Below, in pieces: positions 253 through 59,600 of a stretch of DNA of 64,000 bases. Position numbers and translations under genes: made by a program. The stretch lies in NCBI GenBank assembly GCA_034780895.1, contig JAUZTB010000078.1, positions 5,910,232 through 5,974,231 on the forward strand, written 5' to 3'. A model generated the notes under the pieces. That model ran no database searches. It was not told where the DNA came from and saw only the letters and a list, made by a program, of their open reading frames with translations. The DNA comes from Rhynchobatus australiae (Eukaryota). How positions within the stretch are numbered: position 1 is the first letter of the stretch; each line of letters starts with the position of its first letter.

Positions 253-394
253 ATGCAAAAAGTCAGCAGTCTGCTTGTCAAGCTTGGATGCAATGAATTT
301 GAAAGTTTCGCTGTGGTATTTACTGTCCACATGGGCAGAAATGTCCTCATCTTCAAAGGTACGAAACTTACAGACAGAGCAAGCATACATTATC
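253..394 (-). CDS. AKAP8L: Gene A exon 9, first C2H2 AKAP95-type zinc finger
   Basis: [48 protein letters not shown]; tgtag| and |gtatgt; 142 nt. Confidence 0.95.
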
Positions 395-35600: not shown

Positions 35601-38600
35601 TCTCATAATCTTATATACATCAATCAAGTCTCTTCTCATCCTCCATCTCTTGAAGGAGAAAACCCCTAACTTGCTCAGCCTCTCCTCATAAGATATGTTT
35701 TCCAATTCAGGCAGCATTCTTGTAAATCTCTTCTGCACCCTCTCCAAAGCTTCCACATCCTTCCTATAAAGTGGTGACCACATTATTCCAGATGTGGTCT
35801 GACCAGTGTCTTATAGAGCTGCAACATTACCTCTCTGCTCTTGAACTCAATCCCCCAACTAAGGCTAGCACACTATATACCTTTTTAACCACCCTGTAAA
35901 CTTGCAGGGCAGATTTGAGGGATCTTGTTCTAGAACCCCAAGATCTCTCTCTTCCTCCATACAGCTAAGAATCCTGTCATTAACCATGTACTCTGCCTTC
36001 AAGTTAGATATTCCAAAGTGTATTACTTCACACTTCTCCAGATCGAACTCCATCTGCCATTTCTCTGCCCAGCTTTGCATCCTGTCAATATCCTGTTGCA
36101 ACCTACGACAACCTTCTGCAGTATCTATTACACCACCAATCTTCGTGTCATCTGCAGACTTACCAACCCACCCTTCCACTTCTTCATCCAAGTCATTTAT
36201 AAAAATCACAAAGAGCAGGGGACCCAGAACAGATCCCTCCGAAACCCCACTAGTCACTGACCTCCAGGTTGAATGCTCCCCTTCTACAACCACCCTCTCC
36301 TTTCTGTGGGCAAACCAATTCTGAATCCACATTGCCAATTTTCCATGGATCCCATACCTCATGACTTTCTGGATGAGCCTACCTTGGGGAACCTTGACAA
36401 ATGCCTTGCTAAAATCCATATATACCACATCCACTGCTCTACCTTTACCAATCTGTTTTGTCACTTCCTCAAAAAACTCTTAGTAGGCTCGTGAGGCATG
36501 ACCTGCCCATTACAAAGCCATGTTGACTGTCCCTTATAAGACTCTGCATCTCCAAATGCTCATAAATCTTGTCCCTAAAAATTCTTTCCAATAGCTTGCC
36601 CCCACTGACATAAGACTAACTGGTCTATAATTCCCAGGATTATCCCATTTACCTTTCTTGAACAATGGAACAATATTTGCCATCTTCCAATCCTCTGGTA
36701 CCACTTCTGTGGCCAGAGAGGACTCAAAGATCATTGTTAACACTCCAGCAATCTCTTCCTTCACTTCCCATAGTACCAAAGGATATATCCTATCTGATCC
36801 CAGGGACTTATCTATTCTAATGCTCTTTAGTAGCTCCAACACTGGTTCTTTCTTAACCTCAACATGCCCCAGCACATTTCCCTGTCCTTTGCTAACCTCC
36901 CCTTCATCTAAGTCCCTCTCCTTGGTGAACACAAGTAAAGTATTCATTCAGAACCTCCCCTACATCCTTCGCCTCCAGACACAATTTTTCCCCCATTATC
37001 CCTGAGCAGACCTACCATCACCCTAGTCATCCTCTTGTTCCTCACATATGTGTAGAACGCCTTAGGGTTTTCATTAACCTTACTTGCCAAGGCCGCCTCA
37101 TGCCCCCTTCTAGCTCTCCTAAGGCCCTCCTTAAGCTCCTTCCTGACTACCACATAACTCTGACTGACTGATTTTTGCTTCCTGAACCTTAAATAAGCTT
37201 CCTTCTTCCTCTTGACTAATTGCAACCTTCATTCCGATTTTGTTATTGTTAACAAGCAAGAGTCAAAAGTCAAAACTACTATGCGAAGGTCTGTGATTTT
37301 GGTGAAATTTAAAAGAAATCCTTTCCAACACTTGTAGTGATTCCTACCACTTTTTTTCATGGCTATTGTCCTGATTCTCAAACAGTTGCAAACCTGTATT
37401 CAAACTGTATTCATGAATTATAATAAGAGGACCTTTTAATTAAGATAGTATATGCAGCTTTGGAAATGGAGATAAAATTCAATGTTATCCTCAACCTTTG
37501 CGGATTAGAGTAATGCTTGTCACAAGAGATTCTACAGATGTGGGAATCTGAAGCAACATGTACTAAAAGTGCTGGAGGAACTCAGCAGGCCAGGCAGCCC
37601 CTATGGAGAGAAATAAACAGTCAACATTTTGGGTCGAGACCCTTTAGGACTGGAAAGGAAGAGGGCAGAAACGAGAAGCCAGAGTAATGCTTGTGCTGCC
37701 TTAAGTCACTTTGGCCTGGTGATTGTACATTAGTGACTTTGTATGTAGGACTTGAATGTTGAATGTTAATAGGATATTGAATAAAAGGCATCCCAGACAA
37801 GCCATTTTTTTTTATTCTCATGGAACTACACATGCAGATTTACCACCATAGCAAATAGGTTCCTAACCAATTTTTTGTGATTGCAAGTTGAAAATTAAAT
37901 CTACTACAGTGCTGATAGTCAAAGTTGAGCTTTGGAGCAAAACTATTCATGAAGTCTGTTTCCTACTTGAGAATAATTTACTTCCCTCATGAATATTTCC
38001 TTCCCTGCATTTGATCAGTATCATAAAGAAAGCTTTTTGACTTGAAACATTAGTTCTTTCTCTTTGCACAGATGCAGCCTGACCTGCTGAGTATCTCCAG
38101 CATCTTCTGTTTCTGTTTCAGATTTCCAGCATCTGCAGGAACAGTAACCATAAATACATAATTAAATAGTTTAATGCTTTGGGAATACTTTGCTGAAGTG
38201 AAGGGATTTGGTGTGGTGTGTGAGGGGAAGGTGTAGGGTATTGAAATTGAACTAATTTTCCAATATTCAGCCCTTCAGTTCTTTGGGGTTGAAGATAATT
38301 TACTTCCGCTGTAATTCTGTGGGTCCTGAGGTGACCAAGTAGTGTTGTGTGGGAACTGCAGAGTTTACTACAGGTGGACATGTGGTGGTTTGACTGGAAA
38401 GATGGGTGGGTTATTTGAGATGTGTGCTCCTTCTGTTTGGATATGATCCCCATATCATCTGATTATAGAGGCTTGGGCTGTCCTCCAGGCCGCTTCTCTA
38501 TTTTGAAATGTCTTGGTGCCACAGATTCCCGTGAGTTTTTGAAAATATTGCTTTTTTCAAGATTTTTAGAACACTTTACAAGGTTTCTCTGGCCTGCTGG

Positions 38601-41600
38601 AAGTCTCTTGCTACAACTGAGCACGGAGCAGAGTGCTTGGTAAGGGAGCTCGATGTCTGTCATGCAGATGCTGTGAGCCACCATCAGAGCTAGTTAAGTG
38701 TGTTCAAACACTTGATGTTGGCCCAGAGAGGGCTCTGGCAATGATTTGCCTGTACTGCCTATTCATTTAGAGGGTTTTGCAGAAACATTGGTGGGCTTTA
38801 GTTATGAGGTGCTTACTATACAGGGTCTTGGCCTTTGAGCCAACTTTCCTCTGGCTGAATGCTATAGTAATGCATTGGAGGAAATCACGGATTTCACCTG
38901 CTAAAAGTTGGCTCTGGAGATATAGAAAATGATGTGGTCGCCAGGATCACATTGTGGGCCCTGATTTTCCAAGGGGTGGAGAAGCCAGTGTTCTCTGGTG
39001 GGTGCAGGTTGATGAACGTCATCTGTGTACTGTACATTGACAGAGATTGGATAGTTTTGAAATGGAGACAATGGTTTGAATATATTTCTGTTTATTTTTT
39101 GAGGAGAGGAGCATAATTTCAGCAAGTAAAATTTGAGAAGAGGATTACTAGAGTTTAGGCTTGACCGCAGCCTAAACTGGGATTGAATCTGTGGTGGCCA
39201 CCTTGGTTAGCATCATGGTTTTCATGTCCTTGTAGAGCAAATTTGCAGCAAAATCTGAGCAAAGTCAAACTTGAGAATGATTCTCCATAATCCCCTTCAT
39301 TAAATAGAGTCAAAGGTTTTCATGAGGTTGAGAAAGGTTGTGTACAGCAATTGCTACTCTACTTTCTTGAATTTGTCATTTTCCTTGGATTTGTCACCAT
39401 CTGTAACTTGTCTTGTGTGACTGATGGAATCAACATCATGACTCTAGAAGGAACTTTTTGCCCACTGCGAAGTGGTGATTGAGCAGGATTCTTGCAATTA
39501 TTCTCCCTCAATTTATCACGTTCACACTTGCCTCCTTTCATGAATTTTGCTCTAAGCATTTTCACACTGAGCTGTGGGTGATTAATTACTGAATTGCCCC
39601 AGGTTCCTGGTACAGCAGTGGGGAGAGCAAGGGTTCATTGCCAGGTTCCTACCACAGCAGTGCTGTCAGTAACTGCTTCAGTAACCCTCATATCTTTAAG
39701 TTGTTGAAATAATATTTTTAACCCCTTGATGGGTGTGTAGCACTGAAATTGTGATCTGAAATCTGAAACAAAAACAGAAGGTGCTGATAGAACAGAGCCA
39801 GTCAAGCAACAACTGTGGAAGGAGAAACCAGTCAATGCTTTAGCTCAGCGAACCTTACCCAGTTCTGCCTAACTGGCTGAGTTCCTCCAACATTTCTGAT
39901 TTGTTTCAGATTCCAGAATCTTATTTGTATTCCACTACTATTGAGTTCACTTAAACCTCTTCCAGATATGCCTACTTTCCATTAGTTTCTTTCACACTGT
40001 TTGCCCTCAGTGGTTTCCACTTCTCTCTTGTCTCTCATTAAGTTCTGACCAAAACTCACTTCCACAGCTGGATTTCTTTTCCCCCAGTTCTGAGGAAACA
40101 TCACTGACCTGAAACACTGACTGGTTTCACTTTCCACAGATGCTGCTTACATGGCAGGGTTCTTCCAGCATTTCTGTTTTTGTTTCATTGTTCTTGAAAT
40201 GCTTCTTCCTATATTGGAATTTGACTGCCTGGATAAGCTCCTTGCATTTCAGCAGAATGAGACCTTGCATGGTGAAGAATCCATACTTTTTCTTGTATCT
40301 TTTGTTCTCTTTCCATTCACACCATCTGTTCATTGGATTGAGAGTATTTTGTTGGATGTTAGCCATCAGTTGCCTCACCTTGAGACACATATCCAAGTAC
40401 ACAGATAGCAGAAATCTAGCTGTGAAATTGAGCTGCAAGAAGAAATAAGAAAAGGGATATAGACAGCTTAAATGTCTTGAGACTGGCCTGTATTTCAAAT
40501 CCACCCCAGTCTGCCCTTATAGGCAGTCTTTCCACACTGAGCTGTGGATGATTAATTGCCCCAGGTTCCTGGTACAGCAGTGGGGAGAGCAAGGGTTCAT
40601 TGCCAGGTTCCTACCACAGCAGTGCTGTCANNNNNNNNNNNNNNNNNNNNNNNNNNNNNNNNNNNNNNNNNNNNNNNNNNNNNNNNNNNNNNNNNNNNNN
40701 NNNNNNNNNNNNNNNNNNNNNNNNNNNNNNNNNNNNNNNNNNNNNNNNNNGTACCATTTGTCTTTCTACCTATGCCTGCTCGTTTTCCTCCCATGTTTCA
40801 TGAACCAGCACATCAAGCTCCTTCTTGCTCCTGGCATTTAGTTTTCTGCCATTTGGAAAAAAAAACTTTTTATTTTCCTATCAATGTGAATGATCTTGCA
40901 TTTCCTCAGGTTATACTCCATCTATTGCCTTCTCCAGCCATTTAAGCTGTCTATATCCTTTTTCATATTTCTTCTTACAGCTCATTTTCACAACTAGATT
41001 TCTGTTATCTGCATACTTGGATATGTGGCATTGTGTCCTTCAGTACTATAGTTATTAATGTATTTTGTAAATAGTTAAAGTCTTAGTAGTGTCCCAGAGC
41101 ATAATTTCCACATTTGCAGGTGGTACAGAATCTGAAGGTGTACTGATCTCTGAATTTTAAATTTACTTGAAATGCCTAATGTAATCCCAGTTTCTTAAAA
41201 TAAGCCTAATCTAGAGAATAAATAATAGTTTCCAAATTCTCCAATCAGCGAGGCAACAATGTTATGGAGACTTCATTAATATTCCATAGAATAGAAAGCA
41301 GCTGTAAGTTACTTGCAGAAAAACAAGTGAGAATTCCAAAGGTTCACCACCCCCTGTCTGAAGACATTTCTCCTCATTTCAGTCCTCCTCTTGTTCCAAG
41401 ACTGTGACCCCTGATTCTATACTCCTCAGCTATGGGAAACATACTCCCTTTCAATTCCTGTTTTTAAAAAAAATGTTTCAATGAGATATTTCATTCTTGT
41501 AAACTATACTAAGTACAGGTCTAGTCTACTAAATCTCTCCTCATATGGAAAATGTTATATTCTCAGAATTTATAATATAGTAATAAAGAGTAAAGCAATT

Positions 41601-44600
41601 TGTCAACTGTAGCTCTTTGGTTAAGCTGCTCAATTAATCCTATTCCTCAGCTCCATCCCCTGTGACCTGTAAGTTTGTTCTTCGTGAAAAATTGTTATTG
41701 GGGCTCAAGAATTAGCTCTGACCTCCGCGTATTTATGGAACAGCCAAAATAATTGGACGGGTGTGGTTTTACTAGCAATACAAAATCACTTGTCACATTG
41801 GAGGAAAAAACACAAGAAAAGCTATGTGTTTTCCTAGTTTCCAAGATTCTACTACTAACCTATGCTGAATCTGCAGTGTAGGAAACTGCTTATAAAATAC
41901 TATTTTAATGGCAAAAGTCCCACAGTCACCATAGGCAGTCATGTGGAATTGAGCATGACTTACTTCCATTTTGGTTTTGTTGAATTCTGAGGGGATTGTT
42001 GAGGCCAGTTTGTGATCTCCAGACTCTTCAATGGATGAAACAGGGTGTCTGAAGGAATGGGAAGTTTCTGAGGTGCTCCTTTGATTTATACAGAGTTTCT
42101 GAGTACTACTGATATATGGGCTTCACGTTCTCAGTACCATCCTGAATGCTCCTCCTCCACTTTGAGCAGTTATGGGCCAGAAATTTTCAAGAGTAATTGG
42201 GAATGTTGCATCTTTTCAAGGAGCACATTGAATCTTTTCTTCCGTCCACCTGGTGGTCTCTTTCCATGACAAAAGTTTGGAACAGTGTACATGGGTTTCA
42301 TGAGTCAAATATGGGGCATGCAGACAATGTGGCCTGCCCAATCAACTGACTGTGTGTAACTAGGGCCTCAGTGATGGGGATATTGGCCTTGGAGAGGACA
42401 CTGACATGGCTCTCTGACCTTCCGGTGACTTTGGACAGTTTCGTAGAGACAGTGTTGGTGGTAACTTTTGCGCATGCTAAAGTGACTATAGGTTGTCAGT
42501 GTCATAGGTTGTCAAGGGCAATATAGATAGAGCTAAGTAACCTCACAAGCAGATCAGATTAAAGCTCATTGTGGTTGGTAATTAATTGGCTAACTAAATG
42601 CAGCAGCTCCCAGAAAATCCCCATCCTCACAAGTAGCAGGGTCACCATGAGTGCCAAAGACTGCAGTATTTACAAGCATGTTCAGCCAATAATGCCAATT
42701 AGATGATCCATCTCAACTCCTCCTGAGTTCCCAACCAACACTGAGACCAGTTTTCAACCAACTCAAATGCATTCCTTGTGATATTAAGAAATGAGTGAGA
42801 GTACTGGGTGCATCAACGGCTATGGGACAGACAACATACTAGCTGTAGCATTGTAGACCGGACCTCCAAAATAAGCTGTCCTTGGCAAGCTATTTCAGCA
42901 CAGTTACAATACTGGCTTCTACCAGACCATGTGGAAAATTGAAATATTGTTTGCAAACCTCCCAAGTAGCTGAACAGTGGCTCCCAGAATCATTGTGAAT
43001 TCCATATATCTGGAGAGATATTCAACATGATTCCCACTCAAATACGGATGAATTCAGAAATTCATCACTATTTCCATCTTGCATTCCCTTTATGATGACA
43101 TGCAAACCATGATCCTAAGTGATATCCCAACTCTTCTCGCAATATTTCTCACTGCTCTACGCCATCTCATCTTCAAAAAAAACTTCCTGCAAGAATGGAG
43201 CTAATCCAGAACTAATGGGAAAATGCTGAACCTACAGTGTCTAAGCTCCTGAAACAAGGGCACCCAAACCCCAGTAGTCCAACTGCAGTATGCAGATGAT
43301 GCTTGCATTTGCAGGTGGTCATAGGCCGAACTCCAAACCATTGTTGACTCAAAACATACAGGAGGATATCCCTCACACTCACCACCCATGAGACAAAGGT
43401 CCTGTACCAATCTGCCTCTGCTGTCCAGCATTGTCCTGACAAACAAAATATTCTTGGCAGAACACTAAAACAAAAAGATAACTTACATCAGTAGCAAACA
43501 TTTATGATGACATTCACCAGTGCTTTCAATGGACCAGCACAACCTTTAGTCAATTAAGGAAAAGGATGTTTGGATCAAGGTTTCAGACCTGGCCAAAGCT
43601 CATGGTCTACTGGGCATAAGTGATCCCCACTCTCCTACATATTTTACTATTTGGCATATATAAACATGTGGAGTGGTTGAGCCAGGTACATTAACAGTAT
43701 TTTAAAACAACTCTTGGAAGGTACATGGATAGGGAAAGTTTAGAGAGATATGGGCCAAACACAGGCAAATGCAACCTGCTTAAATGGTTGTCTTGGTTGG
43801 CATGGACTAGTTGGGTCAAAGGGCCTGTTTCTGTGCAGTATGACTCTAATTCCTGAATTCAGGACATCACTGGGCACCTCATCATTTTTAGGTATAACAG
43901 GTAATGCACCTGACAAGCTCTTCTGCACTCATTATTGAACCAGGGTTGATCCCCTGACTTGATAGTAATAATAGAGTCAGGAATATGGTAAGCCATGAGA
44001 TTGCAGTTTGTGGTTGTGTACATGCTCCAGGCATGACATTTTGCACTCCTAATTGAACCAGAATTGATTTCCTGGCTTAGTTGTAATGCTGAGAGGTATG
44101 CCCGGCCAGATTGTGGTGCTGTACATTTCTGCTACTTCCTGATGGTCCACTGCACTTTGTTGATGCCCATTTTAAAACTCCCAGATCTATGCTAAGGCTA
44201 TCTAAGTTAGCGCAAACATAGTGCCACCCAGTATGATACAGGGTATCCTTGGTATGAAATGCAACTTGTCTCCAGAAATATCGATCAATACTTATGGAGA
44301 CGATGTCTGCTGCAGGTAGGTTGATGAGGTCATGATCCTTGTGCTGATTCACTTCTAAACAGCTGCAGTCCCAATCTGGTGGCTGTGTCCTTCAGGACAG
44401 CCAGCCCAGTGATTTCTGGTGTTGCCAAGCCACTCTTGATGGGCACTGAAGATCCCCACCTCCCTCCTCCATCCCAAGATTATAATCTGTGCCCTTACTA
44501 TTTTTACTGTTTCTTCCAAGTGTTGGTCAACATGGAGGAAGATGCTGGTGGTCCTTTTGATTTGATGCCATGTAAATTCATGGGATTTGGAGATGACACT

Positions 44601-47600
44601 GAGAACAGCAAAAGGCGGCTACTTCCTGTATGTATGCTGCTGTGCACTGCCATTGGGAATGTCTCTAATAAACCTCTATGCAACCTACTTCTCATTGGAC
44701 ATAATTGACAACAAATTCTGCATATAATCATTTGAAGTGTAAAGCTTTAAGTTAATAACCCTTTATCAGGCCTATGAATTTCATTCCTGTGTTGGATGTG
44801 CTGTTTTTTAATGACATATCTGATTATTAGATTGAATTTGATTTAAAATTTACATTTCCTATGTAAACTGCTTGCCTCCTTAATTTGTATAGCTCCTGAG
44901 ATGTTCCAAATTAGATTGTGTAATTGTAATACTGCTGCTTTTTAAATTGCTTTTCTTCTCATTGTTGGAATTCTTTTCCTTTTCTGCAAGCCTCTCTTTG
45001 GGCTTGATTTCTGCTCCAACTGCTGTCTCCATTGACTGACAGTTGCTTCTCAATTTGTAGTCCAATTGTGACATTTAATTCTTTTTCACATAAAATTCAG
45101 CCTCGAAAGGCAGCTATCAACTTGAGGTCATGGGCTGAAGTCTGTTGTCTGCCTTGTCTTGAAATTCCCAGGGAAGCTGAGTTGCAAGTTAGATTTGGAT
45201 CTGGTTACCTGGTACCTTTAAATCTTTCACTCAAAACGGAAAGCAATTGCTGGAAAGAAGCAGCATTGTTGTGAAAGTGACATCAAAGCTGTGGCAAGGC
45301 TTGAGGGAGACTGGGTTTGAATTACTCTTGGGTTTCCTGTGACATCATTTACAGTTGGTTTGCCATCCTGATGTTAACCTTGTCCACATCCCTGATTTGT
45401 TTCCTAATATAAATTTAATTAATTTTGATTTTGTAGGTAGATCAAATCAAAAGTCTGTCTTTGCAAGTAATGTAGGCTACATAATATATTTATAATTATG
45501 ACTTGAGAGAAAGTGATAAGATATCTTTATTAGTCATATGTACATCGAAACACACAGTGAAATACATCTTTTGCATCGAGTGTTCAGGGGGCAGCCCGCA
45601 AGTGTCGCCACGCTACTGGCACCAACATAACATGCCCACAACTTCCTAACCCATACATCTTTGGAATGTGGGAGGAAATCCATCTTATGAGAAACACCTT
45701 TTACAATACAGAAAATAGTCTCATTCTTTTGCTCAATCTTGCGGCCATTTTACATATCTTTTACTTAACTATTAACGTCTTTCTCTGCTGGATAATACCA
45801 TGCAGAAGTAACATGTTTTTTTTCATTGAGTTATTTATAAGGCTCTTATCGTTTTGCCCTTTTGGGTAGTGAGGGGGGAAGTGAATAGGCTTATGTGTCT
45901 AACTCTCAAATACCAACCCATGCCCTCACATAACATGGCTGATGAAGACAAAAGCTTGGACTTTCAAATACAATTGACGTAAATAGTGATAAAATCACTG
46001 GAGCTCGTGATTAATGAATAAATTTGCTTAGAATTTTTGGGTTCTAGTTGTGTCCAGTTAAATGTGGAAAGCTGGGAGTTACAAGAATTGCCTTGCTTTT
46101 CCAGAATCTTGTATTTAAGAGTATCTTGTTGAGGAACTTAAGATATGGAAACATTAATATTTATGATGTTGGTGTACTTGTCCACTATCCCATCCAAAAG
46201 GGTTGGAATTGTCCACTCAAGTGAAATTAAAATGCCATACTAAATCTTAAGTATTTTTTTAACCAATCAACCATTGTGGCAGTAGTCTTCTTTAAGAAAT
46301 GTAGAAATTTGAAGATTTCATAAGACATTCCCTTACGCTTCCTGCTGTAGACTCTTGTTAATAAGGATGCCTCCGTTTGCTTGGTTGAAGGGACCCACAG
46401 CTGCTTGTTCTACTTGTTAAAGGTACAGGTCCCCTCTGGAGGGTGCCATATTGTTTTGGCTTATAACAAGAGATCAGAGCAAAAATTCGCAGAACTTTCG
46501 TGTCAAGTATTGTGAATGGTAGGTGCTGTTTGGCATACAACATTATACTGACCATGACGTTTAATGTATATTACCATGAACTAATTTAACATTAAGCAAC
46601 TTGAAATCTAATGGACCTTCATTCACTGAAGAGCCCTTTCTGTGATTTCATTATATGAAATATGTGCATTCTGAGTAATTGCTCTTTTTACTTCTGTCAC
46701 TTTTCCCTTTCTCTCTTGTTTTGCACTCCCTTTTGCCTTCTCTGCATGTTTGTATAAATCATTTCTATTGGTAGTCCGCAACATAATCGTTTGCTGTTTT
46801 AATGGGCTTTTCTGATGTATGTGAAATCATCAGCTGCAGTACATGATCTGTAAATTTAAGAAAAGTCATGTAACTTGCTGTCCTTTGCCCTCTGACCTGT
46901 CACAAGCCCTTTTGTTGTACCTGTTTTCCATTGAGTTTTTATGGGACGTTCACGGCATCCATGACAAGTTTTGTGGGCTAGGACTCATTGGAACAGCTTA
47001 GAAGTCCAAAGACAAAGAGTTCAGAGCAGGAGTGGAATGAAGGATTAAAGTGACAGGCAACAGGTAGTCCATCTTNNNNNNNNNNNNNNNNNNNNNNNNN
47101 NNNNNNNNNNNNNNNNNNNNNNNNNNNNNNNNNNNNNNNNNNNNNNNNNNNNNNNNNNNNNNNNNNNNNNNNNNNTCTGATACCTCTGGCTTGAGTGTTT
47201 CTGCTAGCTTCATCAGATTTAGATGACAAAGCTCTAAAGAATCTTTGGTATTTATGAATTGTCTAATTATATGTTAATACAGTTATGTCAACCTGTTTTA
47301 ATTGTCTACGGTTAACATTACAGTAATCTGGAAGATTTATTTACCAATGAGAAAACTATAAGATACGAGATATCTATTAGTCACATGTACATCGAAACAC
47401 ACAGTGAAAATGCTGCTTTTGCATAGAGTGTTATGGGGACAGCTCACAAATGTCGCCAAGCTTCCAGCACCAACATAGCATGCCCACAACTTCCTAACCC
47501 GTACATTTTTGGAATATGGGAGGAAACCGGAACACCCAGAGGAAACCCACGCAGACACAGGGAGAACATAGAAACTCCTTACAGCCAGCGCAGAAATTGA

Positions 47601-50600
47601 ACCTGGGTCGCTGGCGCTGTAATAGCTTTATGCTAACCACTATACTACTGTGTGGCCCTCTTTCTTCCCAGTGTATTCATTACACAGGCATATTCATCCT
47701 CTAGTCACGTTCGCCTTCTCAATTTGTAGATTTATTGGGCTCAACTTACATAACTCCCTTAATATCTGAAACTTTAACAAAATTCATTCTATATTTAACT
47801 TTTTGAAGTGTTTCTGTAATTTGTTATTCTACATGCTTATCTTCAATATATTTTGAATGGTTCTGGTAATCAAGTATCTCTTTCATTGTTTAACATGTGA
47901 TTACTGATGGAGATAAAAGCTTGTCAACTTCACCAGCCCAACCTTTTTATTTTATCTACACTTCAGTCCCCTGATTATCAAGGGTACAGGGCTATCCTAA
48001 AGATTTAAGTACCACTGATGTGTAGAAAGCAACACAGATCAAGATGACCTACAGTTAATCCTCTATCATTTGATCATTAACAGGGCTCAGTGCATTGCCA
48101 ATTACACCAGAATATATGGACAAGGAGGAATATTGGCTGGGATTTTTGTGGCCACCCTGTGGATTGTGTAGATATGTAATAGTTAAATTGAAGATAACCC
48201 TGAATTTGCCTACAATTTTCACCTGTTCAGTTTTTTTTAAAAGTTGTCTGAAAACAGCGTGACAGCATTCATTGGTTAGACTTGTTCGAACAGTGGTCAC
48301 ATGAGGAAGCAGTTGGTACCCTCAAATGATGTGGAGGAATATGAGTTTGGCGTTTTTGTGAAATTAGTTGATCTAACCAACACAGTAATTGTCTGGTTCT
48401 GTTTCTCTTAGAGTATGGAGAAGATGATTCTTGGAACACAGGAGGAGACGATGGTCAAGGTGATTATCTTTTAAATTTTATCACTATAATACAATATGCA
48501 GGCTTAGTGGGTTCAGAATTACCTGGTTTAAGATATTTTGCTTGTAGTTGATGCTATAATTATGTATCATAGTTGCAGGCATATGTATAGATTTTTATAC
48601 AATTCTTGACTAGTTTACACCAGCTAATAAAGTTGTTCGGTTTTATAATGTTGGCTTATCTGTGTAGAATGGGAATAATATTAATGAGCAACTCAATTTG
48701 TCAATAAGGATTAGCAGCTGTCTTGATGCTCACTACTGTGGGGATAGCGGTCTGCTGTGAGTTAGTGTAATTTAAAATACAATTCTTAACAATTAAAATA
48801 CAATGTGATGGGGTTATTGTCCCTTTTTTGTTTTCTGGCCATTGCCCACACCCTTCCAACTCATCTTTCCCTCCTTACCACTCCCTGAAAAAAAATTTTA
48901 AATAAAGATTTTTGGAAGGCCACTGAGCAGTCCAGCAGATTCATGAACTTCCCTTTGAAGATTAATTTGGAGCATCTTGGCCAGCATGGACAAGTTGGGT
49001 TGAAGGGCCTCTTTCCATGCTGTATAACTCAGAATCATTGAAAATATTGACCTGAGTGAAGGATTTGCCCTCATTGAATTAAGGTCAAGTGGCATAAAGT
49101 GGAATTGTATTCTCTCAATTGACAAAATAAAAACTGAGATTTTACTTTGGTACTCAGCAATGGAAGAATTGAGAACAAAGGGGAATTGGAACTAGATTTC
49201 TTTGATGTTAAAAAGGGAATCACTTGTTCCAAACAAGAGTACTGGAATTCTGCAACTTTCTTTTCCCTCTTTCTTTCTTCCATGTCAGCTCCCACTCCCC
49301 CTGCAAATTCAAAACGTTTTGTTGGATGAGAGATTTGCTAATTATGAAGTTATTGTTGGGTAAAGAGTAGAACTATTATGACTTGATTAAATTGTAGAAT
49401 AGAGTTGAATAGCTGACTGACTTTGTTCTGTTGCTGTGTTTGTTTTTCCTATGTGAATATCTGATTATATGTATTTTGTTCCTGTTAGGGTATGATGGCT
49501 ATGATTACAATTACAATCAAGATAATTCAGGAGATTATTCAGGAAATTATGGCTATAACTCTGACAATAAAGCTTGGGATACTCCTAAAAACCCTAACAC
49601 AGATTCCATCATCGCTAAGATCAACCAACGCCTGGACATGCTCTCTCACCTAGAGTGTGATAACACACCAGGTTCCTCTTCTCGGTCTTCAGGCCAATAC
49701 AACAGGTATCTTCTGGAAGGTCACTAGATGGTAAAATACTGTACTGAATAAGTCAAGAAATTGGACTTGGGACTGATGTGGCACTTTAAATTTAAATAGG
49801 CTAGCACCTGTGTCGGCTCTTCCTCCACCCCACCCCCTCTCGCCCAACCCCAAAGAGAAACTGGTGCTTGCCTATAGTATGGTGAGAAAACACTGGTTTA
49901 TACATTTTACATTTTAATGCTGCCATATATAACTTGAACTAACTCATTTAAGCATGGATACAACATAGATTTAACCAACATTGTTTAAACCTAAATTAAT
50001 CCACCTTATGTCTCACTTGGTATTTTGTGCCAGACATTCGAATCATTTTGAGACCGCCAGGATTGTCGGCATAATTGACCCTAGGTTTGGTTAATTGTTT
50101 TAGCAACGTGAATGGTTCTTCAAGGATTTTCATCTGCAATGCAACCTGTGCTTGGTAACGTGAAGAGTATAGATTGTAGTAACTTGTTATAAAATGCCCA
50201 GTCTTTCCAGTAATTAGGTTAAATTTACAGCAAATTAACAGATGTAATTCAGGACTGCAGTGAATGTTGGATAGTTGAATCATTTGTCTTTTAAAAGGGG
50301 CCAAAGTTTGTGTTTTTTTTTTCCCCATTCCCATGAGGAAAAATTGTAACATTGAATGTTTGGAAGCTGTTTGCTCCACTACTGAAACATATGCCATTTT
50401 GATTGCTCTAAGCCATCACTAGCTACTGTAGTTAGTAATTTAGACATTGTTACAGACAACAACATAAAACCACAAACACCATGATTACCTGAAATATCCT
50501 GTTTAGTCTTTAGTCTGCTTTCACTGATTGATTGGCAGGCTTGTGCCATCGTCCTTTCCAGCTACTGATTAGATTCCTTGCTTGCTCTGCAACTCTTTCA

Positions 50601-53600
50601 GGTTTGCACCTTATGAGTCCTATGACTCCAGGTCTTCAATGAATGACCATGATCCGTACAGATCTGGCTACGGCTATGGTTACGGTGATTCTGGACCTAA
50701 TTATAACGATTCCTATGGAGGTCACTATGACCACTACGACAACTCCTACGGGACTCGCAGAGATCAGTACCACAACAGAGCATATGGTAGCCAACGGGGT
50801 CAGAATTGGTCTAGAGACTGGGCTCCAAATAAGAGAGCAAACTGGAATGACCCCTACATGCAGCCTGGAAGTTCCAGGCGGATGTCTGCGCACTGGAATG
50901 AGCTGTCAATGGGAGGCAGAGGCTACAATGCTGCCTCCTCCACCAGAAACCTCCCTTCGCTCTTCTCCCCAAACATTATCCCCATGGACCTGTTCCGAGC
51001 TCAAGGCTCGGCAAGAGCGTTTGGTGGCAGACAGCGAAGGAGAGACAAGACACGAATCAGAGGCGTAAGTACCTTTCTTAAACACAAAAGAATTTTATTT
51101 TACTCAGTGGCCAGTGGGTATAATCAGTGAAAGATCAAAAAAGCCAAGTTGCAAATTTTTGTGCAGTGCCCATCATCCTTTTTAATATCAGATTAGGTGT
51201 TCATTCTGCTAACATGCTTGACTGTAAATATAATTTTCAAAGCTCCTTCCAGCTTTGGAAGAATTTATAGCTGCATTGATAAGAATTTGGTTAAACATTC
51301 AGGTTTTAAAATGATTGATTGTTTTTAGGATCATCTTCAAAGTAATTCATTGTGTGAAACATTTCAGTGTTTTGATTTGATTTAACACTTTACAAAAGTC
51401 TTGCTTTCTCTGTCACACGTCCCATCCCTCACAGAGCAGTACCTGAGTGAGACATGGCATTGAGTATTGACAAGTTTACAGCATTGCTTGATATTAAGGG
51501 ACTTTACAGATGAGCCTTGAACTTGGTTATAGCTGATTAACAGCTATTGCTGTCATTGCTATCTGAGGGGGATCAGCCTCACGTACAGGGATGCTGGGTT
51601 GGGGGAAAGCCTTCCTGCTTGGGTTAAAAATTGTTCTTTGTATAGTATGCTGTGGAAAAATACCTTTACAGTAGTGGAGAATATAACTTGACAGTCTAAT
51701 ATTTTGCATTTTCAAGCAGTGATTGGGTCCACCAGCATTTCCCTGGTTCTGATTTGAGTTACAGATCAACATGCTTCCAACAAAGTAAATACAGGATCTT
51801 ATAATAACCTTCTGTCTTCTGACCTCAGTTAAATTGAACCCAAAGAAACTCTGGAATTCGTAAAAAGTGCCCTTTTATTTGGCATAAGTAAATGCTTAAG
51901 AGTTTGGAATCTGATTCTAATGCAAGCTGTCTTTGTCTCCTATTAGAGAAAGAAGGTTATAGGTGGTCCAGGCAGGAAGAGGAAACAGTCAACAAGTAGT
52001 ACTGAAGACCCAGAAAACAAGCAAGCAAAAACAGATGATGATGATGGTGAAGATGATGCTGGTACTGTACATTTTTTTTTAACTTATTTGGATCTTGTAT
52101 CCTCTTGGCAATGGAAGGAGTACATGGAAGTTTGTCCACTTGTTTAAGCGAGTACGATTGCTGGACAGGCCCAGATGCAGAAAGTTTGCAGATAGAAACT
52201 TTATTGCAAAAGGAATGGAGAACAAAAGTAGAGAAACTTTGTTATTAACTGTAGAGTGCTTTGGTGAGGCTACTCTTGGTATTTGGCTACAGTTTTGGTG
52301 GTTTTATTTAAGCCTTGGAGGTAGTACAGTGAAGGTTCAATGAATTAAACTTTGGTACAAAGATTTTTTTTCTGACGAATGACAATTTTGCCTATATTCT
52401 TCAGAGTTTAAAAGAATAAGCAATGATGTAAGTAAAACAACTAATTCTGAGATAACTTGGCTATTCCGTGAGGTATTTCCCCGGTGGGGAAATTTAAAAC
52501 TAAAGGATATAATCTCAAAATGAGAGGCTGTCTGTTTAAGATTGAGATGAAAAAGAATTCACTCTCTTGGAGATTATGAATCTTTGGAGTTCACTACCTC
52601 ACATAGTTGTGAATGCTGAGTTGTGTATATTCAAAGTAGAGATATTTTTGTACCATGGAAAATGAGGGATTATGGAGATGAGGCAGGAAAGTGGAGCCAA
52701 CTATAGATTTTATTAAGTGGCAGAGCACACTCCAGAGCCATTTTGATTACGTCAATTTATATGCTTAAATACATTTTACAAGGAATGAGTTTAATATGCT
52801 GACTTCTGTGGTGCAGGGTGTTACATTTTGTAATTGGTTCCAAGTTATAGGATTGTGCTGTAGAGAATAATTTAGATCTTTCCATTCCACAGAGTATATA
52901 AATTGAGAATGTTGTGGTGTTATGTTCAGTAAGCAGACTGTGAAATATTTGTCTAGGATATATGCAAATTAAGTTAATCCTGTGAAATCAGGATTATGGT
53001 TAAAATTATGGTGGTTAGCGAAGAGATGTTACAATTCATTGGAAGAATTAGCACAATGTTATTTCTATAGTTAAAACCCTTCTGTGTTGATCAGATGTCA
53101 TAACCGCTCAAGCAATTGTTTTTGTTGTTTTTGTTTTAGAAGACAAAGAAGATGATGGAGTTGATTCAGTAAGTACTACTTCATTCGACCTTTATCCAAA
53201 ATTATTTAACCAGGGTGCGGATTCATTTTGCTGCTAATTAAACCTAAGAGGTTTGTTTGGTTGTTAAATGGAGAATTGTGATGATGATAGAGAGGAGACA
53301 GAAAATGCCTCTGTGTTACCCAACGTCTCTTTTGAAAGACTTGTGTAAACAATTGCATTTTGTCTGCAATCGTTGTATCTTTACAAACATGTTATTCTTT
53401 CACGGGAAGTAGGTATCACTCCAAAAGCCAACAATAATTGCCCATCCCTAATTGCTCTTGAATTGAGTGGCTTGCAAGATAACCTAAAGGTACAGTTAAG
53501 AACAGGCCCTGTTGTTTGGAGTTATCAAACTGAGGAAAAGGCAGCAGGTTTCCTTTCCTGAAGGGCAGTGATGATCCTTGTTAGTTTTTTGTGACTGCCT

Positions 53601-56600
53601 TGTGGTTTTGTGGTTACCATTTCTGTTGTTAGTTTTTTATTCCAGATATTAAATAGCAAGTTTGATAATTTCAGATTTACTCACATTAAATTCCCTATTT
53701 GTCATTTGAGTCTTATTAGTTTCATGCCTCTGACTGACTTGTCCAGTAAAACAAAACCTCAGTTGACACAGGTGTAATGCTGAGGGTGGTTTGTTGGCTA
53801 AGTAGATTTATTTTACTCATATAGCATTGTTTCAGTATATCAGGAGGAGCGTAGATACAGCTGAACCATATTCATCCCTTTGATGGCGCATCTGTGGTTA
53901 TCATATTTTCCTTTATAACGGTGCCCTCAAAAGTGTTGCACAGAATGTGAGGCATTTTGAACCATTGTGTGAACATAAAGTGGCAGATAAATCCCAGCTG
54001 AATTTTTGTCATGGTGTATAATTTTATTTGCAATAAATAACACTTATAAATGAGGTTGCAGAATCCTGGACCATTCCTTGTAGCTGTAACACCAATACAG
54101 CACCACCTTCAATCACCAGACTTTGTTAACCTTGGATTATCCGGTTCACATGGAAGTAAAACAGTTTGAATTGGTATTCACTCCCTCTCTCCTTGCCAGG
54201 CAGCTGATGACTTCAATTGTCGCTAATGAAAGGTCTTGCATAAAACTGATTAAACTATCAAAATGAATATTTATGAACGGTTGAGTTTTATCTCTCCATA
54301 GTACACTATTGTAATTGAAAATGTGGTACAGCATCATTATCGCGAAATTATATTTACTCTGACAGGGGTAAAGCAAAGGTACATGTAGTCAGACCTGGGG
54401 GTGTGGGGGGGGGTNNNNNNNNNNNNNNNNNNNNNNNNNNNNNNNNNNNNNNNNNNNNNNNNNNNNNNNNNNNNNNNNNNNNNNNNNNNNNNNNNNNNNN
54501 NNNNNNNNNNNNNNGGGCAGCACAAAACTCAGTAAGCGCCTGAAACTTTAAGATACTTGCATTTTTTTCTCAGGGCGGTGAAGACAAGGATCCAAGTGAG
54601 AAGAAGACAAAGCGTTGTAAGTTTGGTTACAGAACCCTGCAGAACTGTTGCATTACTGGCTAATTTCATTAATTAGTAATGTCAAAGTACCAAGATGCCA
54701 ACATATATAATGTGTATGTGTAAATGTTATTCTTCCTACTCATCTTCTTGCATGTTCACAAGAGGATGAGATTTGTGTTGTTTATCCCAGTAGAAGCGTG
54801 CCTGAATTAAAAGGAATTTGCTGTGATCCCTATATTTGTATAGATTGGGAGAGGTTGCCCTGATGCTGGGGGATATCCTGCAGTGGTCCTTTAATGCTTC
54901 CTGTATCATTGCCTTGAGAATCCTCAAAGATATATCACTGGCCTCCAATTTCTTGCTGACCACCTTCTACCTTGTCACTCATCCCAAGATACCACAGCCT
55001 CTAGTCAAATTATCTTACATCAGTCCTGGATGACAAAATTATATTGTATTAAACACCAAGAAGACCACAGCCATATTAGAAAAAAGGGATATTGTTTGTC
55101 CAAGAACAAAAATATCAAGGAATAAAATGCCCCAATCTTTAAAAGTTGCACCAGAGCTTAATAAGGCCATAAAGGGAGCAAAAAAGAACTAAAGTTTATT
55201 CTGAGAAGTGGAGAATTTATGCTACACCTACATTGACCCTTGGTTAGCCCATGTTTCTGGATATTGCACTAATTTCTGATTGATTGCCATATTAGAAAGA
55301 GAACATTGTAGCACTGGAAAAAGGTGAGTAGATTTACAAGAATGACGCCAGAAATGCAAGGTGCATTTCCCGAACAGGTGAAAAGGTTTGTTTCCTCAAG
55401 AAGAGGGGCTTGAATACAACGTGGCGATTTAAAATTTTGTACACGTACAAGTGTGCAACATGACTTGGGTTTTGTTTTAATACTGTAATATTGGTATTAC
55501 CCATGAATGTCTTTCATTGTTTTTTCAAACAGTTCCAACTATGCAAGAGAAGAAAAAGACCGGCAAGCCCAAAAAGAACCGTGACCGCCTTGCAGAGAGG
55601 TACTGCTTGGGGATAGTTCTAGCCAAGTTTAAGAATTGTTGAGAGATCAACATTACAGTTCATGTGTTTTAAAAATGTAATAAGCAGAGTTCTATACAGT
55701 GTACTTAAAAAGTCAAAGTTGACTATGATTTGGCATGTGACCCTCATTATCTCTCCTGTTTCTGCTCTTGCTTTCCTGAGTAGTAGAACTGGATGAGTTT
55801 GGTTATGTAGTCCTCATGAACGTGACAACTCTAGTAATTTTAGAGTTGCCACACTAGTGCTATGGAAGAGGTAACTCTGCTCAGAGCATTCATTTCTCTG
55901 GCAAAAGATTAGCAATGTTTGTGACGTGTAAATCTTGGATGCTTTGCCAGCCACCTTTATTTTAGAAACTTGTATTTGATATTGATTATACAAACATGGG
56001 TTCATTTGGTTAGGTACAAAATTAAATGTATTTGGGAGAGTAAGAAAACATTTCATTAGTTCATGAATTTGGCCAGTGCAGAATGAGTTCCTAAACTAGT
56101 TCTGCTTTGTTTCTTGCAGGATAACATATGCCTGTTCAGTCTGTAAGTTTCGTACATTTGAAGATGAAGAAATTGCTAATCACATGAAGAGCAAATTTCA
56201 TAAGGAAACTTTAAAATTTATTGGGACCAAGCTCAAACCTGAAACTGCTGACTTCTTGGATGTATGTATATTGCTGTGTTTTGAAGTTTTTGCAATGCAG
56301 GATATAAAAGTTGAGGCGTTCCCTTTTAAAACCTGATTATTAAATGGTTCCCTCAGTTTGAAATCTCAGTTGAAGGCTAGGTGACCTTGCCTAAATTATA
56401 ATGCTTGATTACATCTGTGGTCATAATACAATCTGCGGTCTCTTGTAACAAGTTGCTTTCTTTACTTGTTACTCTACTCCTCTACTCTCATAAAAGGGTT
56501 CAGTGATCATGGATTACTGCACAATAATTGTGAACTAAAACCTGGGCCATTGGTTACACTTAATGCAGAGACTAGTTAAGTATTCTCTTTGCCACTTCGG

Positions 56601-59600
56601 CTGATAACTGCTTTGTATTGACTAGGGATTGACAGACCTTCTGATTTGCTTGAAGTACTATTGTTAATTTATTGACTTAAGCAGCTGAGTTTCAAAACTT
56701 CTCATTTAAAATGTGACAAATTTTGGGAGTGTTGGTGATTTGAAATATGATGAATTTTTAAACCAATATTGATCATTGTCTTATCCTATCAAAACAAAAT
56801 TGCTTCCATGCATTTTAAACCGGTGATTCTTGTGCTTTCTGCCATGTGTTACGTTCATGAAAATGTAGACATGTTCAGACTTTTGTAGTGAAATTAATTC
56901 TTTAGAATACTCTTTGGTGATGAAGTAAGTATCCTTTGCCTATTGTGCGGTTTTGAGCTTTGTTAACCATAAGGCGCCATACTTGTCTGATTTTTACAAG
57001 CATGGACAGGCAACGCCTGCATTATGGTTGTTGGGTTATGGAAATTCTCCCTTAGAATTCACAAATCACTGCCCAAAAATTTGAGATACAGAATAAAATT
57101 TGCTCATGAGGAATTTATGGGGGGGCGGGGAGAGTAAGTAAATAAACACAAGATTTATTTTTCTTCAACTTGCATTTCTTGACACATACACAGATAACAC
57201 AGCGTGTTATGGAAAATCTCGATTTTCTGGGACCGTCACCGTCATAACGTGGGGGGTCGCCTATACATGTTCAGCAGCAGTGACTAGTGAACGTATGAAG
57301 ATTGACTTATTTCTTGAGCCAGTTGACTGATCAGCGCAGAACTGAGATCATTCACGTGCCCCATCCGGTCCATGTTCATCAACAATTAGTTGTAGCAATT
57401 GGGGGGATGCCTTTAACTTGTGAATGCTAATCGTTTTTATATTTTGCTTCAGGAATACATTTCAAACAAGAACAAGAAAACGCAAAAACGTCGAGAGCAG
57501 ATAGGAGATGAAACTATTCTCAAAAAGCAACTAATGCAGCAACACGACGTACTTCAGGGTATGCTGGAAACTAAAATATCTTTGGATTAATTTTGTTTAA
57601 ATTTCATTTCTACAGAGTATAAAATAGTTGTGATTTGCTCATAATTTTTTTCTGCAATGATTTGCCCAATTTCTTACAGTGGTGCAGGAAGCAAGCAATC
57701 TGTGAATGTGGAAAATGAAGAGTACAAGCATATAAGCATAAGGAAATAGTAGGAGTGGGCCATCTGGCCCTTCAAGCCTGTCCCACCATTTAATATGATC
57801 AACTCCTCTTCTGTGCCATTTCTCCATATCCTTCTATTCCTCTATGTATTCACTTTAAATACTTCTAGTGATCCAAAGGCAAAACTATAGCCCAGACATT
57901 GTAAAGGAGGGTCAGTTACTCCGCAATACTGTGATTTTATTCTTCTTGCTCCTTTCCTCTTCCCATCCTGATCAAGAAGTTTTATTCTGTTATTAGGTCT
58001 GAAATTCCCTTTGCAGCCACAAGGCTTGAAGGAGTGCCAAGCTTATGAAATTAAAACTCTACAAATACCATGCTTGAACTCTGGCATTAACAATCTGGAC
58101 GGTTGTTACTGGGTAGAATTTTACAATTGGTGTTAGAACTGGATTTATTTTCATTTTTGTAACTGTAAAGTAATGGAAATGGGGTGTCAACCAAAACCAC
58201 CCAGCAGAATATTGCACATGCTGGAAGTGTGAAATGAAACTGAACATGCTTGGGCTTTATCTGAAGTGGCAAACCGAATGAACATTTCAGGTGGATGACA
58301 TTGCTGTTATGAGGGAAGTTCAGTGACCTCAAAACATAGAACACTACAGCACAGAAAACAGGCCATTCAGCCCTTCTAGTGTGCCAAAACTTCATTCCAC
58401 TAGTCCCATTGACCTGCACCCAGTCCATAACCCTCCAGACCTCTCCCGTCCATGTGTCTATCCAACTTATTCTTAAAACTTGAGAGTGAGCCCGCATTTA
58501 CCATGTCAGATGGCAGCTCGTTCCACACTCCCGCCACTCTCTGAGTGGTTATTTATATTATTAATTATATATAATTAATAATGAATTAAAATTAATAAGA
58601 ATGAAATAAATTAATTAATAACATTAACTCAGGTTTACTTGTCTCCAAAAACTTGTGTCTGATAAAGTGGACACAGTATAACTGTTTGGGTGGAGGATTC
58701 CTTCAATTTATTAATCACGTTTTTTGTTTGACTATCACTGAATCTTGGTTCTGCGGCAGGTATTGGTATGGAGCAGTGCATGAAAAAGGTGGAGGCAGCT
58801 CACTGTATGGCTTGTGATCTCTTCATCCCAATGCAGACGGGCTTCATTGGACAACATTTAAGGTCAGCTGAGCACATCAGGAACCGCAAAGTAAGTGGAA
58901 CAGTATCAGAACAAACTTAGTGCAATACCATTCGTCCTGTGTAGTCTATCCCGGATCCCAGTAGAGCCATTCCATTACTCGTATTCTCCCCCTCATATTT
59001 TGTTTGCACCCCACACGATATTTTCTAACGCGTGCCCATCAGCTCCCCTTTGATTCTTTTGCCATTTTGTTATACTGAAAGATGATTTACAGTAAGCAGC
59101 TAGCCTACAGGTATGTCTTTGAGGAAACCAGAGTATCCTGGGGAAGCCCTGGTGGTCAGAAAAAGAATGTACAAACCCCAAATAGACGGCTCCTGAGATC
59201 GGGATTGAAGCCGAGTCACTGGAACTGTGAAGCAGCAGCACTAGCATCACTTGTGCACCTGTTCTCTTGCCACAACCACGCACCTCTCCCCACCCCAAAC
59301 TCCCATGGTTATCCCTGCTATATCGTACTGTTGTGTTCCTGCATTCATTTGAAGGGGGAAGTGGGTATAGAATGGACAGCTAGGCTCGAACTTCCACCAT
59401 TTTCCAGCGGATAAGGTGCTTTATCCTCTATTACTACTTGGCCTGTGGTTGCTAGAGTCACTTTAGGTTGGTTTCCCCATGGCTGCCAAGCTTGGAGAAA
59501 CTCAAACTGCAAGAAGATCCAGAAACGTTTTAATTGAAGTAGGGTTTCGTTGAGAAGTCTGCATGAAGTGCTATCAATATTTGGACAATGGGATCCATCA

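Follow-up and report, generated by a model that had tools for sequence, protein, structure and literature searches.

Why should one exon encoding a low-complexity domain be so much more alike in DNA between two inverted neighbouring genes than the exons around it? The question is raised by a window of 64,000 nt, the whole stretch of DNA analysed here (Rhynchobatus australiae, GCA_034780895.1, JAUZTB010000078.1, positions 5,910,232-5,974,231 of the forward strand), which carries the paralogues A and B (Table 1). The initial annotation read exon 4 and its flanks as a probable gene-conversion tract, with an RNA-level constrained element as the fallback.

The two genes and the similarity of exon 4

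The models of both genes splice in frame and each gene has a CpG-island promoter of its own, with the start codon of gene B lying inside the island. The introns beside exon 4 measure 4.2 and 5.9 kb in gene A and 0.9 kb each in gene B. Every top protein match of A and B is named AKAP8-like, and exon 11 of gene B matches PF04988, the AKAP95-type zinc fingers, with 50.9 bits against a cut-off of 26.8. On these matches, A and B are AKAP95-family (AKAP8L-like) RNA-binding-protein genes; PF04988 places them among RNA-binding splicing regulators, a function taken from the mammalian homologues. They resemble the rest of the family (AKAP8/AKAP95, AKAP8L/HA95 and ZNF326; PF04988) in the zinc fingers and the N-terminal Tyr-rich domain, but cartilaginous fishes have an AKAP8-like copy, C, next to A and B, three copies in all, and the head-to-head A/B pair is specific to them. 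Family members regulate splicing (PMC5105168), and residues 101-210 of human AKAP95 mediate self-interaction and Tyr-dependent condensation, which is required for splicing control (PMC5105168; bioRxiv 10.1101/536839). An assembly artefact was rejected, as 14% of aligned exon bases differ between A and B and a named sawfish protein matches each of them (99.7% and 98.7%).

Table 1. Coordinates of the A/B locus and its exon-4 features within the window.
Feature	Position	Strand	Remarks
Gene A, AKAP8L-like paralogue	253..28262	-	head-to-head with B; exons 1-9 in window, continues past its left edge
Gene A exon 4	10771..11248	-	478 nt, phases as gene B exon 4
63-nt near-identical block, gene A copy	10843..10905	-	sequence comparison
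Gene A conserved intron-3 end	11249..11345	-	upstream AG 11290-11289, branch-point-like A 11282
Gene B, AKAP8L-like (AKAP95 family)	31819..61253	+	exons 1-11 modelled, last two placed approximately
Gene B conserved intron-3 end	50501..50601	+	matches A at 51/56 nt in its distal part and 35/40 in the proximal 40 nt
Gene B upstream AG; branch-point-like A	50560-50561; 50568	+	from sequence
Gene B exon 4	50602..51064	+	463 nt, phase 2 in, phase 0 out; Tyr/Gly/Asp/Arg-rich low-complexity domain
Exon-4 5' segment	50602..50782	+	low silent divergence (6/44), although A and B have fixed amino-acid differences at 13 columns
Candidate hairpin in 5' segment	B 50630-50698; A 11221-11157	B +; A -	weak covariation support
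Exon-4 middle segment	50783..50932	+	silent divergence 13/32, ordinary; 14 fixed A/B columns; chimaera B groups with B
63-nt near-identical block, gene B	50933..50995	+	1/63 nt differs from A
Conserved exon 3' end and extended donor	51023..51081	+	exact runs 51023-51047 and 51053-51076; A equivalent about 10812-10754

The top self-match of the window is inverted and pairs 10734-11363 with 50482-51108 (80.6% over 651 columns, E 7e-174), the longest exact A/B run being 48 nt. Measured between the two paralogues, with the 136 comparable codons of the other eight exons as background, silent differences were found in 23 of 113 exon-4 codons versus 55 of 136 (Fisher p 0.0009), and four-fold sites differed at 10 of 53 positions versus 22 of 42 (p 0.0009). 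Exon 4 has a pS of 0.28, a dS of 0.34 and a dN of 0.10; dS is not uniform across exons, reaching 1.25 in exon 3 and 1.27 in exon 9 and being saturated in exon 8. Realignment reproduced the single mismatch originally seen in the 63-nt block, as well as the spread of similarity beyond the exon: about 100 nt into the upstream intron, with identity at 88 of 102 aligned nt, and about 17 nt past the donor, where 17 of the first 20 nt match. Exon-4 differences had also been described as mostly single-base amino-acid changes with few silent ones; the former is correct (27 of 32 amino-acid differences), but the latter was overstated, since silent differences number 23 and third positions make up half of all differences (15/15/30 by codon position). 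The contrast drawn with exon 8 exists (12 of 18 degenerate codons with an identical residue differ silently), but exon 8 is the most extreme comparator, and the contrast with exon 9 alone (11/32) is not significant (p 0.10).

The low silent divergence lies at both ends of the exon (4/37 in the 3' segment), whereas the middle is as diverged as other exons, in a three-segment split that was chosen after viewing the data and is alone not significant (max-chi permutation p 0.18). The 63-nt block sits within codons 111-138, the only run longer than 11 codons in which A and B show no fixed difference. Identity in the upstream intron (86%) exceeds that of silent sites in the exon middle, and no alignable intron flank was found at the other eight A/B exon pairs. 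Taken against the genes' own other exons, these comparisons demonstrate statistically a nucleotide-level constraint over the terminal ~100 nt of intron 3, ~180 nt at the start and ~130 nt at the end of exon 4, and the extended donor, with the excess conservation at silent and flanking intronic sites observed between the paralogues and in one chimaera read-through.

Orthologues and the case for conversion

Fifteen A and 16 B elasmobranch proteins were compared at the protein level. Exon 4 contains 36 columns with A/B differences fixed across all 31 sequences, and its ray versus shark orthologue identity is 0.937 for A and 0.940 for B, so that the supposed paradox of a well-conserved disordered exon dissolves: in protein, few exons of these genes are better conserved. 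The same-species excess of A/B identity was +0.0001 (p 0.36, 14 species pairs), and AU tests on the exon-4 tree rejected a grouping of A with B within the window species (p 6e-35), rays (5e-4), elasmobranchs (6e-4) and chimaera (0.018). For the 5' and 3' thirds alone, stem conversions were not rejected (p 0.13-0.49); tests for local tree conflict in the 3' third gave AU p 0.08-0.29, and that third did not reject ray A+B (p 0.16). A/B indels in exon 4 are common to sharks and rays, some also to chimaera, which has both genes. As read from these proteins, the inverted A/B duplication predates the chimaera-elasmobranch split (421 Ma; Renz et al.), and strong purifying selection acts on the protein sequence of exon 4 in A and in B independently.

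Conversion of the whole exon with its flanks, either ongoing or recent or as a single event in the elasmobranch stem followed by neutral decay, would account for dN and dS both being about threefold below those of exons 3 and 9. It is refuted at the protein level, however, by the trees and the fixed differences, and the shared indels and the modest longest run of identical silent sites (15 of 249, Sawyer-type p 0.21) also speak against it. The stem variant was modelled by placing the conversion immediately ahead of the shark-ray split, at 0.65-0.75 of the age of the duplication (306/421 Ma), and was rejected, as silent identity is too high for the whole exon (predictive p 0.003-0.011), its 5' segment (0.003-0.007) and its 3' segment (0.001-0.002), and the intron gave p below 0.001. 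We consider conversion on this scale extremely improbable; the trees and the near-invariance between rays and sharks support the fallback of an RNA-level constrained element instead. Recurrent conversion of short tracts between the inverted paralogues, surviving selection only where the proteins were already identical, is a better but still unlikely candidate, which would cover the 87-nt block of codons 111-138, the donor region and the intron flank. The genes are inverted neighbours 39 kb apart, the 63-nt block falls in the only long stretch free of fixed differences, GC3 is 0.62/0.53 in exon 4 versus 0.47/0.32 in exon 9, and the 3' third tolerates a ray A+B grouping. Residue-level hints point the same way: two A-type residues beside the block in both squalomorph B proteins, a short motif before the block that is present in elasmobranch A and B and absent from both chimaera copies, one private residue near the exon start common to both chimaera copies, and a residue near the exon end that A and B have in common in several rays; all of these may also be ancestral states or parallel changes. 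Short tracts leave unexplained the 5' segment, in which fixed differences lie at most 10 codons apart yet silent divergence is low, and also the chimaera third-paralogue match described below; the run of 15 identical silent sites is not significant, and lineage-specific variants inside the block (Narcine A, Pristiophorus B) were not copied across. On the protein data, the 3' invariant block may have undergone conversions that were short, local or ancient, of which there are faint hints; purifying selection rather than ongoing conversion probably explains the exon.

Exon-restricted conversion between tandem paralogues is known, for example in opsins and protocadherins, and in those cases sequences cluster by species. 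A and B are alike in being neighbouring paralogues with one low-dS exon, but their exon 4 clusters by paralogue back to the chimaera split, making the locus a warning case in which low paralogue dS in a single exon mimics conversion. Two corollaries of the initial annotation fared no better: homogenisation to keep the paralogues co-miscible gains no support from a set of sequences with so many fixed differences, and inversions seeded by the inverted repeats left no trace, as N-terminus, exon 4 and zinc finger derive from one paralogue in 75 of 75 scorable proteins (inversion-derived chimaeric genes, 0/75).

What the constraint may act on

Because the constraint brackets both splice sites, it most likely concerns pre-mRNA sequence that governs the rate or occurrence of flanking-intron removal. 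The exon-4 similarity is accordingly best explained, in our view, as an ancient nucleotide-level and probably splicing-regulatory constraint around the exon for the Tyr-rich domain of AKAP95-family proteins, and action through splicing control is likely overall. Use of the upstream AG after exon 3 is predicted to add 40 nt and to meet a stop two codons in, in both genes, and read-on into intron 3 likewise computes to a stop in A and B. The chimaera third paralogue, known from a single automated gene model (A0A4W3I8S8), apparently extends into the intron ahead of exon 4. Its read-through matches A in 9 of 9 codons and B in 7 of 9 with a 1-nt offset, whereas none of the remaining 470 acceptor-like sites, of 472 in all, scores above 4; the match spans the last ~29 nt of gene A intron 3, an acceptor-proximal stretch common to three paralogues. 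A search for further intron read-through models gave 2 matches among 12 candidates and 8 among 9, all ordinary except A0A4W3I8S8. Between the first introns of A and B, the best local alignment was barely above shuffles.

Other targets of constraint fit less well. A conserved RNA secondary structure, comprising a long 5' hairpin, an intron hairpin and a stem closing the 3' segment, is distinctly unlikely: the A 5' hairpin (z -3.8) and the B 3' segment (z -3.9) fold well, but their counterparts in the other gene (z -1.2 and -0.6) do no better than shuffled sequence. With one placement of the gaps, the 5' hairpin shows two double changes from G-C to A-U (p 0.044 uncorrected), the lone nominal result among 24 tests, while compensatory and broken pairs over the whole block match the null (p 0.11-1.0), in covariation tests that, with two sequences, have little power. 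An 8-bp helix is predicted in both 3' segments, but one of its arms is hit by amino-acid changes in stingray A and chimaera B. The 64-kb window has 0 Rfam matches, and window z-score scans, consensus folds and a substitution-shuffling null revealed no consistent structure shared by A and B. Constraint on the DNA itself, through an exonic enhancer or internal promoter overlapping exon 4, is less probable still; for part of a gene body, the exon is rich in CpG (o/e 0.74 in A and 0.52 in B), and silent CpGs are common to both copies in 5 of 46 possible codons versus 0 of 44 elsewhere, but conservation stops ~100 nt before the acceptor and ~17 nt beyond the donor, includes the branch-point, pyrimidine tract and donor, and both genes already own promoters. 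Dual coding is hardly credible at all and was rejected: an open +1 frame of 130 and 140 codons spans most of exon 4 in the two genes, but about half of synonymous resamplings give an equally long frame (p 0.49 and 0.52), the two frames end at different places, and the intron conservation would be left unexplained.

Splicing control, the reading that we prefer, draws on annotated isoforms in which the exon-4 acceptor is spliced to alternative upstream donors, namely 18 B-type proteins from 15 elasmobranch species and 13 AKAP8L proteins of reptiles, caecilian and lungfish. It also finds a parallel in mammals. Detained introns are listed for mouse Akap8, Akap8l and Zfp326 and for human AKAP8 and AKAP8L (Boutz et al. 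2015, PMC4281565), although such introns are common (3150 mouse and 13308 human rows), making a listing alone weak evidence. Two in mouse Akap8 (chr17 32453612-32454011 and 32452729-32453131) flank a gap of 481 nt, a length that is 3n+1, as in ray exon 4, and near the caecilian and coelacanth AKAP8 estimates (478-502 nt); size, phase and exon order are the basis for assigning it to exon 4. For human AKAP8, the list gives a single detained intron, of comparable length. Detention is an RNA measurement, whereas the ray genes are known here from DNA. In mammalian AKAP8L, to which A and B are closer, the detained introns on the list look like downstream introns.

Intron 3 and/or 4 could be detained or retained, or competing splice sites used, and the resulting nuclear or stop-containing RNA would tune the amount of protein, a step that we infer from the mammalian Akap8 introns and the general rule for splicing-factor genes. 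The AKAP95-family proteins themselves would be the natural, putative trans factor for feedback. Such an element would be moderately surprising, since RNA-binding-protein genes are well known to carry conserved splicing elements. A conserved or ultraconserved element of ARGLU1 is reportedly linked to unproductive splicing of this RNA-binding-protein gene. The paralogues SRSF4 and SRSF6 share homologous unproductive splicing with a common poison exon (PMC4379411). The A/B element is like those of ARGLU1, SRSF4/SRSF6 and other SR genes in its RNA-binding splicing-regulator host, in conservation spilling from exon into intron and in being kept in paralogues; unlike in those genes, no poison cassette exon was identified and the constraint flanks a large coding exon. 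NMD or feedback acting through the A/B element would be putative, and its longest exact run, 48 nt, is between paralogues, whereas ultraconserved elements are defined by at least 200 nt of perfect identity between orthologues.

If correct, this reading would describe a new cis-regulatory element, more than 420 million years old, in a family of splicing regulators of which a human member supports tumour growth through condensates, and would provide exact sequence (the acceptor-proximal 100 nt and the exon ends) for testing how AKAP8, AKAP8L and ZNF326 levels are set. A literature search, mostly without subscription papers, found no account of conserved sequence, autoregulation or conversion at exon 4. 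More doubtful is a family-wide feedback switch predating the AKAP8/AKAP8L split and including a gene-B isoform, in which AKAP95-family proteins would control detention of the introns flanking the exon for their own condensate-forming domain. The cis-element would then have been kept in three cartilaginous-fish paralogues and in mammals, and cross-regulation of paralogues would buffer the total condensate-forming dose; in gene B, the conserved isoform could be made only via a 1-nt exon or re-splicing at the exon 2-3 junction.

Similarity of exon 4 between the two genes and its comparison with orthologues

The strongest self-match of the window is an inverted one that covers exon 4 of the AKAP8L-like genes A and B (see table), in which the 63-nt block described as near-identical in the initial annotation indeed differs at a single base. 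As had also been noted, the similarity reaches into the introns (88/102 nt upstream and 17/20 nt downstream), and exon 4 is the only one of nine exon pairs with alignable flanks. The dS value between A and B is 0.34 for exon 4, compared with 1.25 for exon 3, 1.27 for exon 9 and saturation in exon 8. Silent differences amount to 23/113 in exon 4 and 55/136 in the other exons (p 0.0009). The claim of few silent changes was overstated, given 23 silent versus 32 replacement codons, and the contrast is non-significant against exon 9 alone (p 0.10). By segment, silent changes number 6/44 over the first 60 codons, 13/32 over the middle part and 4/37 over the last 44 codons; this split was chosen after the data had been seen (permutation p 0.18) and is therefore descriptive, the whole-exon figure being independent of it.

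Coordinates of features in the window (gene A, minus strand; gene B, plus strand)
Feature	Gene A or unassigned	Gene B
Exon 4	10771-11248	50602-51064
Inverted self-match	10734-11363	50482-51108
63-nt block	10843-10905	50933-50995
Exon-4 frame open into intron 3	11249-11350	
Intron end matching sarcopterygian AKAP8 residues		50593-50602
Exon-3-less isoforms		48412-48459, 49489-49495, 50602
Replacement burst in elasmobranch B		49489-49560, 50602-50700
First-intron 10-nt motif	27638 (minus)	32437
First-intron CCAAT-like motif	28021 (minus)	32009
LINE-like fragments	508-1244, 24208-26125, 32950-33300, 35360-36400	
Exon before last		starts ~60170
Assembly gap		60250-60263
Last exon		60777-61253

The similarity had been attributed to a probable gene-conversion tract over exon 4 or, alternatively, to an RNA-level constrained element, and named orthologues were compared at the protein level. 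Among 10 A and 12 B sequences, ray and shark exon 4 share 93.7% identity in A and 94.0% in B, at least as much as most other exons, and A and B are 76% identical to each other, a value bracketed by those of exons 8-10 (72-88%). When each species is represented by a single protein (15 A, 16 B), 36 columns of exon 4, indels included, carry fixed A/B differences, and A/B identity within species is not above the between-species value (p 0.36). Separate A and B clades were recovered from exon 4 and from exons 8-11 alike, and the within-species clustering in exon 4 only that conversion predicts was not observed. In the exon-4 tree, elasmobranch B and chimaera B are sisters (support 98-99), and AU tests with 27 sequences rejected an A+B grouping for the window pair, rays, elasmobranchs and chimaera; published dates (PMC3692497) place the chimaera-elasmobranch split at 421 Ma and the shark-ray split at 306 Ma. 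The fixed columns, the two clades and the AU rejections all speak against the proposed tract: the exon-4 feature is real and is mostly not conversion.

On the 5' or 3' third alone, which are too short, AU tests did not reject stem conversions, nor a ray A+B grouping on the 3' third. Codons 111-138, inside which the 63-nt block lies, have no fixed A/B differences, and silent exchange there is invisible to protein data. Old local conversion is hinted at by A-type residues adjoining the block in both squalomorph B proteins, and by motifs common to elasmobranch A and B and others common to both chimaera copies, but each hint is also explicable as ancestral retention or parallel change, and the longest identical silent run is non-significant (p 0.21). 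The idea that the inverted repeats could seed inversions found no counterpart among 75 scorable proteins, isoforms counted separately, of which none was an inversion-derived chimaera (50 B-B-B, 25 A-A-A). Compared with chimaera B, which has stayed A-like, elasmobranch B shows a burst of replacements in the front halves of exons 3 and 4, after which it has been near-static for ~306 My.

Probable nucleotide-level constraint and the intron 3 acceptor

A decay model placed the last homogenisation as late as the fixed differences permit, at 0.65-0.75 of the duplication age, followed by decay like that of the other exons. It gives so few silent changes with a probability of 0.003-0.011 for the whole of exon 4 and <0.001 for the intron flank. 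Neutral decay after an old homogenisation was rejected, as its fit needs events in about the last quarter of the duplication age. The shortage of silent changes relative to the decay model, together with gaps of ≤10 codons between fixed A/B differences throughout the 5' segment, argues that nucleotide-level selection is needed at least in that segment. RNA structure is a lead only: two double changes occur in one hairpin, with p 0.044 when gaps are placed favourably and as a single result among 24 tests, and the A and B copies differ in how strongly they fold.

The conserved intron end holds a branch-point-like site 34 nt upstream of the acceptor and a predicted upstream AG, use of which would add 40 nt and bring a stop two codons later, in A and B alike. 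The automated chimaera model P0040 (A0A4W3I8S8), which belongs to the more distant paralogue C, starts upstream of exon 4 with residues resembling intron read-through. Allowing a 1-2 nt offset, these match the translated acceptor region at 9/9 codons in A and 7/9 in B, against ≤4 codons at the remaining 470/472 acceptor-like sites of the window. The acceptor-proximal ~29 nt would thus extend to a third paralogue, one that has clearly not been converted, across a separation of 421 My; this evidence is a single model, targeted searches having returned no further read-through model. In A, the exon-4 frame is open for ~75 codons upstream into intron 3 and is stopped in B; a dedicated search found no protein carrying the A-type extension. 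In caecilian and coelacanth AKAP8 (P0044, P0045 and P0046), exon 4 is preceded by three residues identical to those that the last bases of the ray intron would encode in frame, hinting that the acceptor may have slid upstream in sarcopterygian AKAP8.

Putative regulated intron removal around exon 4

In the mouse detained-intron list of PMC4281565, two Akap8 introns flank a gap of 481 nt; this length is 3n+1, as is ray exon 4, and resembles the estimates for the exon in AKAP8 of caecilian and coelacanth (478-502 nt). From the size, the phase and the exon order, we infer that they flank the homologue of exon 4. The list also holds Zfp326 intron 4 and Akap8l intron 11, and its human counterpart lists one AKAP8 and two AKAP8L introns and none of ZNF326 (PMC4281565); the listed AKAP8L introns appear to sit further downstream. 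The nuclear gradient-enriched transcripts, among which isoforms that retain an intron are abundant, include a mouse Akap8 isoform (PMC12487819). Splicing is stimulated by AKAP95, HA95 and ZNF326 alike (PMC5105168), and residues 101-210 of AKAP95 mediate its self-association and condensation (PMC5105168 and bioRxiv 10.1101/536839). Annotated isoforms join alternative upstream donors to the exon-4 acceptor. From the acceptor signals, the mouse detained introns, the isoforms and the splicing role of the family, we infer that intron removal around exon 4 is probably regulated, and the input would likely be self- or cross-regulation. The putative element would act much like the conserved sequences that accompany regulated introns in genes for splicing factors (PMC4379411 and PMC4281565). 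The available text of the family-evolution review PMC12203939 mentions no such element and the literature searched yielded no published description; it is probably a previously undescribed member of this class.

Across 15 elasmobranch species, 18 annotated proteins of type B keep the frame although exon 3 is absent. Plain exon-3 skipping in B frameshifts, and retaining the first base of exon 3, directly followed by a GT donor-like sequence, restores the frame exactly. The isoforms may therefore use an exon of 1 nt or be spliced again at the junction that is regenerated, although they could also reflect an annotation habit. Gene A is without that GT, and no exon-3-less A isoform was seen among annotated proteins.

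The gene pair and its surroundings

Genes A (253-28262, minus strand) and B (31819-61253, plus strand) lie head-to-head, each with its own CpG-island start; exons 1-9 of A, those inside the window, and 1-11 of B were modelled with in-frame splicing and matching phases, and the zinc-finger exon of B matches Pfam AKAP95. Homologues numbered 82 in the search, almost all of them carrying an AKAP8-like name, the closest named ones being from the sawfish Pristis pectinata (99.7% to A, 98.7% to B). In cartilaginous fishes the family is present as A, B and the AKAP8-like C, all three of which occur in chimaera, and the two AKAP8L-like copies are the product of a lineage-specific inverted duplication. 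Among named proteins on the same contigs, the three neighbours (two AKAP8L-like, one AKAP8-like) are all annotated under a single name.

The first introns of A and B share a 10-nt motif, which we take to be YY1-like, and a second, presumably CCAAT-like motif, at similar places of the CpG islands, and do not align beyond these two. Several decayed LINE-like reverse-transcriptase fragments, presumably of CR1/L2 type from their motifs, carry stops and frameshifts, one of them <100 nt from the A exon 8 donor. In B, the assembly gap breaks the exon before last, and the last exon encodes a long acidic Gly/Glu repeat.
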